Source: Escherichia coli (GTDB lineage: Bacteria > Pseudomonadota > Gammaproteobacteria > Enterobacterales > Enterobacteriaceae). From it: DNA of 64,000 nucleotides. Below the pieces are notes generated by a model. That model did not search any database. It was not told the origin of the DNA and saw only the letters and a program-made list of their open reading frames with translations. Location of the stretch: assembly GCF_003019035.1 (NCBI RefSeq), contig NZ_CP027447.1. The stretch is one strand, 5' to 3'. The position numbers and the translations under genes are program-made. Positions 13,261-13,712 of this stretch are shown here, one piece after another (position 1 is the stretch's first letter; the number at the start of each line of letters is the position of its first letter).

Positions 13261-13451
13261 CAGGCAGAATTGCCGGAGTAACAAAAAAGCGATAGATTAC
13301 GCGCGGGTGCCTTTCGGCTGATGGTCGGAGGGAATACCCGAAGGCCAGATGTGGAAAGGCCCCGGAAAACATCTCTGTTTAACCGAGGCCCTAACATATC
13401 TACCTTAAGCAAGTGATAGGTTAGCGCCTCTCCAACAAAGGAGCAAGCGCT

Positions 13452-13592
13452 ATGTCGCAAAAATCGCTTACGGCCATCACGTTCTGCGTGACGGTAATCC
13501 TCATCATCTGGATGCTGCACGGTTCGCTGTGTGAAATACGGATGAGCTTCTGGGGAGCGGAGTTTGCGGCGTTCTTACAGTGTAAGCAGTAA
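13452..13592 (+). CDS. Hok/Gef-family type I toxin (46 aa), not in ORF track
   Basis: MSQKSLTAITFCVTVILIIWMLHGSLCEIRMSFWGAEFAAFLQCKQ: N-terminal TM helix then SLCE[IL]R...E.AAF..C motif characteristic of Hok proteins; SD AAGGAG 6 nt upstream of ATG. Confidence 0.65.
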   Translation: MSQKSLTAITFCVTVILIIWMLHGSLCEIRMSFWGAEFAAFLQCKQ

Positions 13593-13677
13593 GGAAACCG
13601 CGACGGGGGAGCAATCCCCCGTCAATCGGTTGCTAAGGTTGGCTGAAGTGGCACCCTATCTCTCAGACATGAACAAC

Positions 13678-13712
13678 AAACCCGCAGCGTAAAAACTGCG
13701 GGTTTTCTTTTT
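13678..13712 (+). terminator. Rho-independent terminator-like hairpin downstream of hok-like gene
   Basis: CCCGCAG-cgtaaaaa-CTGCGGG followed by TTTTCTTTTT. Confidence 0.6.

Follow-up and report, generated by a model that had tools for sequence, protein, structure and literature searches.

Does the short reading frame that follows ogr in this Escherichia coli prophage encode a toxin of the Hok/Gef family, and how is its synthesis controlled in a leader that has no mok frame? All coordinates given here refer to the window, the stretch of 64,000 nucleotides of contig NZ_CP027447.1 that was analyzed as a whole. The reading that we favor, with a probability of about 0.6, is that the locus is a hok/sok-type type I toxin-antitoxin (TA) cassette which is carried as cargo just after ogr by a P88-like prophage of the P2 family, and which is controlled directly at the toxin gene.

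The ORF listing returns the frame precisely as the preliminary description had given it, with an ATG start and the translation MSQKSLTAITFCVTVILIIWMLHGSLCEIRMSFWGAEFAAFLQCKQ:

13452..13592, plus strand: hok coding sequence, 46 codons plus stop, encoding a Hok/Gef-family membrane toxin of cluster 72

Its assignment to the Hok family, previously made by eye, holds in a search with Pfam PF01848, where the HOK_GEF model is matched at positions 5-42 of 42 (29.9 bits, E=4.3e-7), and PHROG 251, labeled 'MokW-like host killing', gives a full-length match (82.8 bits, E=2.5e-23). The 46-aa peptide has one N-terminal membrane helix and contains the hydrophobic stretch TAITFCVTVILIIWML. Family-conserved positions are present as C12-V-T14, L26-C27-E28 and E37; in a logo of 1264 Hok peptides the conserved residues are C16, T18, L30, C31, E32 and E41 (bioRxiv 10.1101/2025.08.07.668861), and the alignment belonging to that catalogue places the window peptide with HokA-type peptides. 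Scores with the NCBIfam models are far under the cut-offs, both for the HokA equivalog NF007290 (35.8 bits against a cut-off of 89) and for the Hok subfamily NF007279 (23.6 bits against 73), which makes the peptide a family member that is not orthologous to any of the named Hok proteins of K-12. HokA of K-12 is the closest named protein, giving the best match in both NCBIfam and BLASTP with 43% identity. R1 Hok, with 52 aa compared to 46 aa here, is 39% identical over 31 residues in BLASTP and has SLCEIR and E.AAF in common with the window peptide.

An ORF list with a 60-aa cut-off would leave out a frame of this size, and the preliminary description had taken the gene to be a missed one. The 46-codon gene is in fact a known Hok-family toxin gene and has not been overlooked: it is annotated in RefSeq, where the peptide is WP_000078920.1, 'Hok/Gef family protein', it is found in phage records and belongs to a named phage family, and it stands in a published catalogue together with the toxicity of near-identical peptides. 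That catalogue of 1264 Hok peptides, a 2026 preprint by Escalera-Maurer et al. (bioRxiv 10.1101/2025.08.07.668861), contains the exact 46-aa sequence of the window as entry 1628 in cluster 72. The two cluster-72 representatives tested there, 72_1621 and 72_1589, are not among the three of 45 homologues that were non-toxic (10.1101/2025.08.07.668861); 72_1621 is one residue apart from the window peptide (V15A), and 72_1589 is of the Stx-phage type. At the protein level there is no difference between the window Hok and cluster 72, PHROG 251 or WP_000078920.1. As the catalogue itself states, Mok, Sok and mRNA structure were not analyzed (10.1101/2025.08.07.668861), so the absence of mok and the RNA anatomy described below are not covered by it.

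The position next to ogr and the status as prophage cargo, both proposed in the preliminary description, are borne out by the annotation of an identical RefSeq genome, in which 13000..13260 is an ogr/Delta-like zinc finger. The gene order there runs from tail genes through ogr/Delta-like zinc finger, Hok/Gef, a Com-family regulator and a DNA methyltransferase to flk, yfcJ and fabB. Because this prophage gene order ends at the host genes flk, yfcJ and fabB, the hok locus lies as cargo in the terminal part of a P2-family prophage. Of 5426 complete E. coli genomes, 1554 (~29%) contain bases 13261-13720 (460 bases), three of them with 100% identity; copies of the segment occur in up to seven places per E. 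coli genome, nearly all of them chromosomal, and the feature annotated under the matches is 'Hok/Gef family protein'. The locus is present in phage P88 (Peduoviridae, Xuanwuvirus) at 99.3% identity, and a copy of the module is carried at 83% identity by Stx-converting lambdoid phages, which puts it in two unrelated phage types (P2-like and Stx). Homology between the window and the Stx-phage copies extends from ~13284 to 13656, the end of the fbi-like element, and these limits are therefore taken as the borders of a mobile module. A search for a second hok copy within the window found none. Two viral contigs (L057 and L059) each hold two Hok modules ~500 bases apart, tandem duplicates in which both peptides and leaders have diverged. 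The benefit to the prophage may lie in stabilization, in the timing of lysis or help with it after induction, or in exclusion of other phages. Exclusion of other phages has been reported for R1 hok/sok.

Further along the window, a Com-like zinc-finger ORF at 13833..14039 (PHROG 13819, 'gpCom control of modification') extends into the beginning of the DNA methyltransferase gene at 13984..14775 (PHROG 67), and three GATC sites (13760, 13778 and 13791) together with a palindrome at 13777-13795 lie at a promoter-like site, 13780-13807. This layout (13760-14775) recalls com/mom control in Mu, from which it differs in having an ordinary methyltransferase that is located at the very end of the prophage. 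The window also includes a tRNA-Arg gene (anticodon CCT) at 45459-45533; tRNA-Arg (CCT)-type genes are frequent integration sites for islands and prophages.

Relatives of the module were collected with a degenerate DNA pattern of the C-terminal part of the peptide, which led to 120 viral contigs and from these to 59 distinct modules with 73-100% identity. An uninterrupted 46-codon frame is retained by 58 of the 59, down to 73% module identity, and dN/dS for the Hok peptide is 0.1-0.35 (purifying), also when the codons fixed by the pattern are removed. As the pattern search biases the sample to an intact GAEFAAFLQC segment, a separate dN/dS calculation was restricted to codons 1-34. Frame conservation and dN/dS together indicate that the Hok peptide is translated and is under selection.

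Besides the coding sequence, the plus strand carries the following predicted signals of a hok mRNA:

13270..13298, plus strand: predicted hok promoter read from the sequence, with -35 TTGCCG (13270-13275), a 17-nt spacer and -10 TAGATT (13293-13298)
13305..13319, plus strand: predicted 5' end of the hok mRNA, tac-like, GGGUGCCUUUCGGCU; the RF01794 match starts at 13305
13422..13452, plus strand: hairpin B, which sequesters the hok Shine-Dalgarno (SD) sequence in the minimum-energy fold, anti-SD CUCC (13430-13433) pairing with GGAG (13440-13443)
13601..13624, plus strand: GC hairpin after the hok stop codon, a scanned stem in which five of nine pairs have compensatory changes
13626..13656, plus strand: 3' fold-back region, in which 13626-13634 is the partner of 13358-13366 and the fbi-like element 13641-13656 that of the 5' end
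13678..13714, plus strand: intrinsic terminator, consisting of the stem 13678-13705 and a T run

The predicted promoter begins 10 nt past the ogr stop codon and is too weak to be called in a consensus promoter scan. The distance of its -10 element (TAGATT, TAGAAT or TAAATT) to GGGTGCC is constant in almost all of the 59 variants, including those with unrelated upstream DNA, and the element aligns in MAFFT with the -10 elements of R1, hokB, hokC and hokE. The SD sequence AAGGAG is located as described earlier, at 13438-13443 on the plus strand and 8 nt before the hok ATG, and its GGAG is kept in all 57 aligned variants. The GC hairpin noted earlier is likewise real, with arms ACGGGGGA (13603-13610) and TCCCCCGT (13615-13622), the coordinates first given for it being one base off; by analogy with R1 (PMC9841398), it may be the hairpin that protects the 3' end of the processed, translatable mRNA. 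The terminator also agrees with the earlier description, having a 10-pair stem at 13678-13705 that is followed by TCTTTTTGCT. Terminator-like sites in the scanned region number six, compared to 0.6 expected from shuffles. The terminator is present in most P2-like contexts and absent from the Stx-phage copies, and is therefore counted as part of the surroundings rather than of the core module.

Folding of RNA 13305..13714 gives z=-7.4 relative to shuffles. The Rfam model RF01794 ('sok') matches 13305-13462 on the plus strand over the full model length with 47 bits (E=1e-8), under the gathering score of 59, and scores 84-118 bits on R1 (87), hokB, hokC and hokE. In all of these reference loci the match is on the hok-sense strand, so that what the model describes is the hok leader, beginning at the 5' end of the mRNA and reaching the start codon; that the strand of the hit marks the Sok strand was considered and is ruled out by the same observation in hokB, hokC, hokE and R1. 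A MAFFT alignment shows the window locus to be colinear with R1, hokB, hokC and hokE in the -10 element, GGGUGCC (tac), the stem of the Sok terminator and GAGG, and further in the hok SD region, the post-stop hairpin and GGCACCC (fbi). Fold-back complementarity between the ends of the mRNA, which the preliminary description had put forward as a check, is found between 13305-13319 and 13641-13656 in both the minimum-energy and the consensus folds, with compensatory changes.

The consensus fold was computed with RNAalifold from an alignment of 57 distinct modules. Standard pairs make up 98.7% of its cells, compared to 33-42% when the partners are slid by 1-3 columns, and 18 of its pairs have compensatory changes, compared to 1-7 in the slid controls. 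Compensation is concentrated in the tac/fbi extension (13314-13319/13641-13646, four of six pairs), the helix 13358-13366/13626-13634 and the post-stop hairpin; long-range helix 5 has three compensatory pairs. The start region of the coding sequence (13452-13467) pairs with 13557-13572, and both strands are invariant in the 57 variants. The latter segment corresponds to hok codons 36-41, whose synonymous sites are invariant in the 57 variants though free in the search pattern; given this pairing with the start region, the coding sequence is constrained at the RNA level too. The spacer at 13639-13647, inside the 3' fold-back region, is one of the two most variable stretches of the module, the other being 13391-13409. 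Taken with the protein matches, the RNA architecture (leader model, colinearity and end pairing, with a predicted Sok) supports the identification of the locus as a hok/sok-type TA system that had been proposed at the outset.

The antisense RNA, together with any mok-like leader frame, had been expected somewhere within 13300..13460. A Sok-like unit is indeed predicted in that range, and its target can be assigned to a second hairpin in the leader; the mok-like frame is absent.

~13353..13411, minus strand: predicted Sok-like RNA of ~55-60 nt with inferred ends, consisting of a 10-nt single-stranded 5' tail and a stem-loop
13418..13446, minus strand: predicted Sok promoter, with -35 TTGCTC (13446..13441), a 17-nt spacer and -10 TAACCT (13423..13418)
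13385..13430, plus strand: hairpin A, the predicted Sok target, in which GAGGCCCUAAC (13385-13397) pairs with GGUUAGCGCCUC (13419-13430)

Transcription of the predicted Sok would start near 13406-13412 on the minus strand, and the RNA (13412..13346) folds at -27 kcal/mol with z=-4.1; its position is colinear with that annotated for sokC and sokB in K-12. Within the candidate promoter AGGTTAGCGCCTC is invariant in 57 of 57 variants, yet the promoter falls under the threshold of the consensus scan; the R1 Sok promoter, TTGCGC-17-TATCCT, has the same place as TTGCTC-17-TAACCT here. The apical loop of hairpin A is complementary to the predicted 5' tail of Sok. Hairpin A corresponds to helix 6 of the consensus fold, in which 99% of the cells are paired in the 57 variants and changes are one-sided only. 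It competes for 13422-13430 with hairpin B, whose local stability of -14.2 kcal/mol is similar to that in R1, hokB and hokC. No stretch of the module varies more than the Sok-target loop (13391-13409). This variability fits a diversification of Sok/target specificity among the up to seven copies per genome, and a variable loop combined with that many copies would make the family a good case for studying cognate specificity among paralogous antisense pairs.

The leader retains GAGG (13385-13388), which is the mok SD of R1, hokB and hokC. A start codon follows GAGG by 7-9 nt in R1, hokB and hokC, the 70-codon mok of R1 starting 8 nt after it, whereas the window reads ATC at the mok start position (13398), and TAA at 13406, TGA at 13414, TAG at 13417 and TAG at 13422 leave none of the three frames open as far as the hok ATG. 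A mok-like frame is missing here and from every leader variant of the subfamily. The interval 3-13 nt after GAGG contains no ATG, GTG or TTG in any of 33 distinct leader variants, 17 of which have all three frames closed ahead of the hok ATG. When CTG, ATT, ATC and ATA were also allowed, no start column was common to more than 43 of 57 variants, and a non-canonical start was rejected for this lack of column conservation. Two other candidates were considered and rejected: an upstream ORF of 31 codons (13321..13416) as an analogue of mok, which is without an SD and ends after a few codons in Stx-type copies, and an in-frame N-terminal extension of hok as in mokC, which is precluded by an invariant TAG at 13422 with no start codon behind it. 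R1 requires mok to be translated up to the hok SD (PMC9841398). Reviews describe mok as obligatory for hok/sok, and mok-less loci may already have been noted by Steif and Meyer in 2012.

By homology with R1 and K-12, the full-length hok mRNA would be inert, with its 5' end locked onto the 3' element, and slow 3' trimming to the post-stop hairpin would refold the leader. A short, unstable Sok transcribed from the promoter inside the hok leader would pair with the leader and block expression, probably also triggering cleavage by RNase III; on the loss of Sok, Hok would be made and the inner membrane depolarized. In the control that we propose, these events would act directly on the hok ribosome site, with no need for a mok reading frame. 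After trimming, GAGG (13385), the former mok SD, would pair with the CCUC anti-SD and weaken the hairpin over the hok SD, and binding of Sok would take GAGG away, upon which the anti-SD would close on the hok SD again.

Energy calculations on the 57 variants reproduce the R1-type refolding in silico, as the median cost of enforcing hairpin A drops from 8.3 kcal/mol in the full-length RNA to 0.2 kcal/mol in RNA trimmed to 13630 or shorter. The cost of opening the hok ribosome site was computed for positions -16..+13, with the Sok block simulated over 13352-13411. Its median is 14.5 kcal/mol at full length, 11.0 after trimming and 14.8 when the trimmed RNA has its Sok target blocked, and blocking raises the cost in 56 of the 57 variants. 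The hok sites used as controls are unresponsive, with 21.7, 21.0 and 20.6-22.3 kcal/mol for R1 and 17.2, 16.2 and 17.3 kcal/mol for hokB (full, trimmed and blocked), whereas the mok sites go on trimming from 15.3 to 8.3 kcal/mol in R1 and from 17.5 to 4.6 kcal/mol in hokB. Compared with these controls, the hok site of the window behaves in the model like the mok site of other loci, at reduced amplitude. The relief predicted for trimming amounts to only ~3.5 kcal/mol, and it requires a 3' end at or before ~13630, being gone when the end is at or beyond 13636. Judged by unpaired probability, the idea that hairpin A frees the SD is not supported: GGAG has values of 0.07-0.12 in every predicted state, even with hairpin A enforced, and the effect appears in the opening energy only. 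Also against direct control are the stability of hairpin B, which equals that in mok-dependent loci, and the one-sided changes in hairpin A, which is without compensatory ones. We put the odds at about even that 3' trimming and Sok binding directly control the hok ribosome site. The broader proposal, that the cluster-72 subfamily has dispensed with mok and that 3' processing and Sok control the hok site directly with GAGG serving as an anti-anti-SD, is more tentative, and its chances fall a little short of even.

Direct control has to be weighed against a canonical hok/mok/sok arrangement, in which a leader frame with an odd start codon or of very short length goes unrecognized and Sok blocks its translation as in R1. 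The requirement of R1 for mok translation up to the hok SD (PMC9841398) speaks for such a frame, as do the conserved mok-SD element GAGG at 13385-13388 and a hok SD hairpin whose stability equals that of mok-dependent loci. One candidate frame of this kind would be a three-codon GTG ORF at 13413..13424, present in 43 of 57 variants and terminated by the invariant TAG that lies at the foot of hairpin B; its GTG is, however, missing from the Stx-phage group, and no start column is common to more than 43 of the 57. The 31-codon ORF at 13321..13416 does not serve either, with its early stop in Stx-type copies. With no start at the expected distance from GAGG in any of the 33 leader variants, all frames closed in 17 and the sole frame left open in some of them open in 16, which is about what chance would give, we consider a hidden mok unlikely.

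The loss of mok could also mean that the locus is a regulatory relic, a cassette that is still transcribed and from which Hok is essentially never translated, comparable to the IS-inactivated loci of K-12. The absent mok frame and a hok SD that is predicted to be mostly paired in all states would agree with this, and several K-12 loci are disrupted (IS186 by hokC and hokE, IS150 in mokA). Against it stand the frame kept in 58 of 59 relatives with dN/dS of 0.1-0.35, the conservation of promoter, SD and long-range helices including compensatory changes, and the occurrence of the locus in two phage types that are not related and in ~29% of complete E. coli genomes, which together make a relic improbable, more so than a hidden mok. 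The length of just 46 codons and the NCBIfam scores under their cut-offs might further suggest a small ORF that arose by chance in the interval between ogr and the com-like gene and that lacks any Hok function. This notion is already contradicted by the Pfam and PHROG profile matches, the conserved hok mRNA architecture, the purifying selection on the peptide and the toxicity of near-identical peptides, and we give it practically no weight.

Under the favored reading of a cassette with direct control, it is the regulatory anatomy that would be of interest to the type I TA field, as a toxin under purifying selection occurs without mok in ~29% of genomes. If the broader proposal for the cluster-72 subfamily is true, translational coupling through mok is not universal among hok/sok systems; if confirmed, the subfamily would represent a natural, simpler variant of hok/sok, with the ribosome site of the toxin itself as the point at which Sok acts.

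Among known systems, the hok loci of K-12 have annotated mok frames, with mokC in frame with hokC and mokB overlapping hokB, whereas the window locus is without mok. The K-12 loci are chromosomal and several are disrupted by insertion sequences, with IS186 next to hokC and hokE and IS150 in mokA; the window locus is prophage cargo. Like the window locus, hokW-sokW of Sakai prophage 5 is a prophage-borne type I TA system of the Hok family (PMC8621323). Its toxin and antisense antitoxin have been shown experimentally, with dependence on RNase III and Hfq, and it has been proposed to aid phage release after induction (PMC8621323). HokW, which was compared with R1 Hok in a paper that does not take up a mok frame, is 51 aa long and comes from a lambdoid phage (PMC8621323), whereas the 46-aa Hok belongs to a P2-like prophage, and the difference in length rules out that the window gene is hokW. 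The closest parallel to the proposed control is found in aapA/IsoA of Helicobacter pylori, which is described as a system without a leader peptide in which the toxin SD is sequestered by the fold, 3' processing activates the mRNA and the antisense RNA binds the active form (PMC9841398, PMC5416894). The same logic is what we propose for the mok-less Hok subfamily and, by inference, for the window locus; the toxin and RNA sequences of aapA/IsoA are unrelated to those of the window, and the likeness is one of mechanism only.
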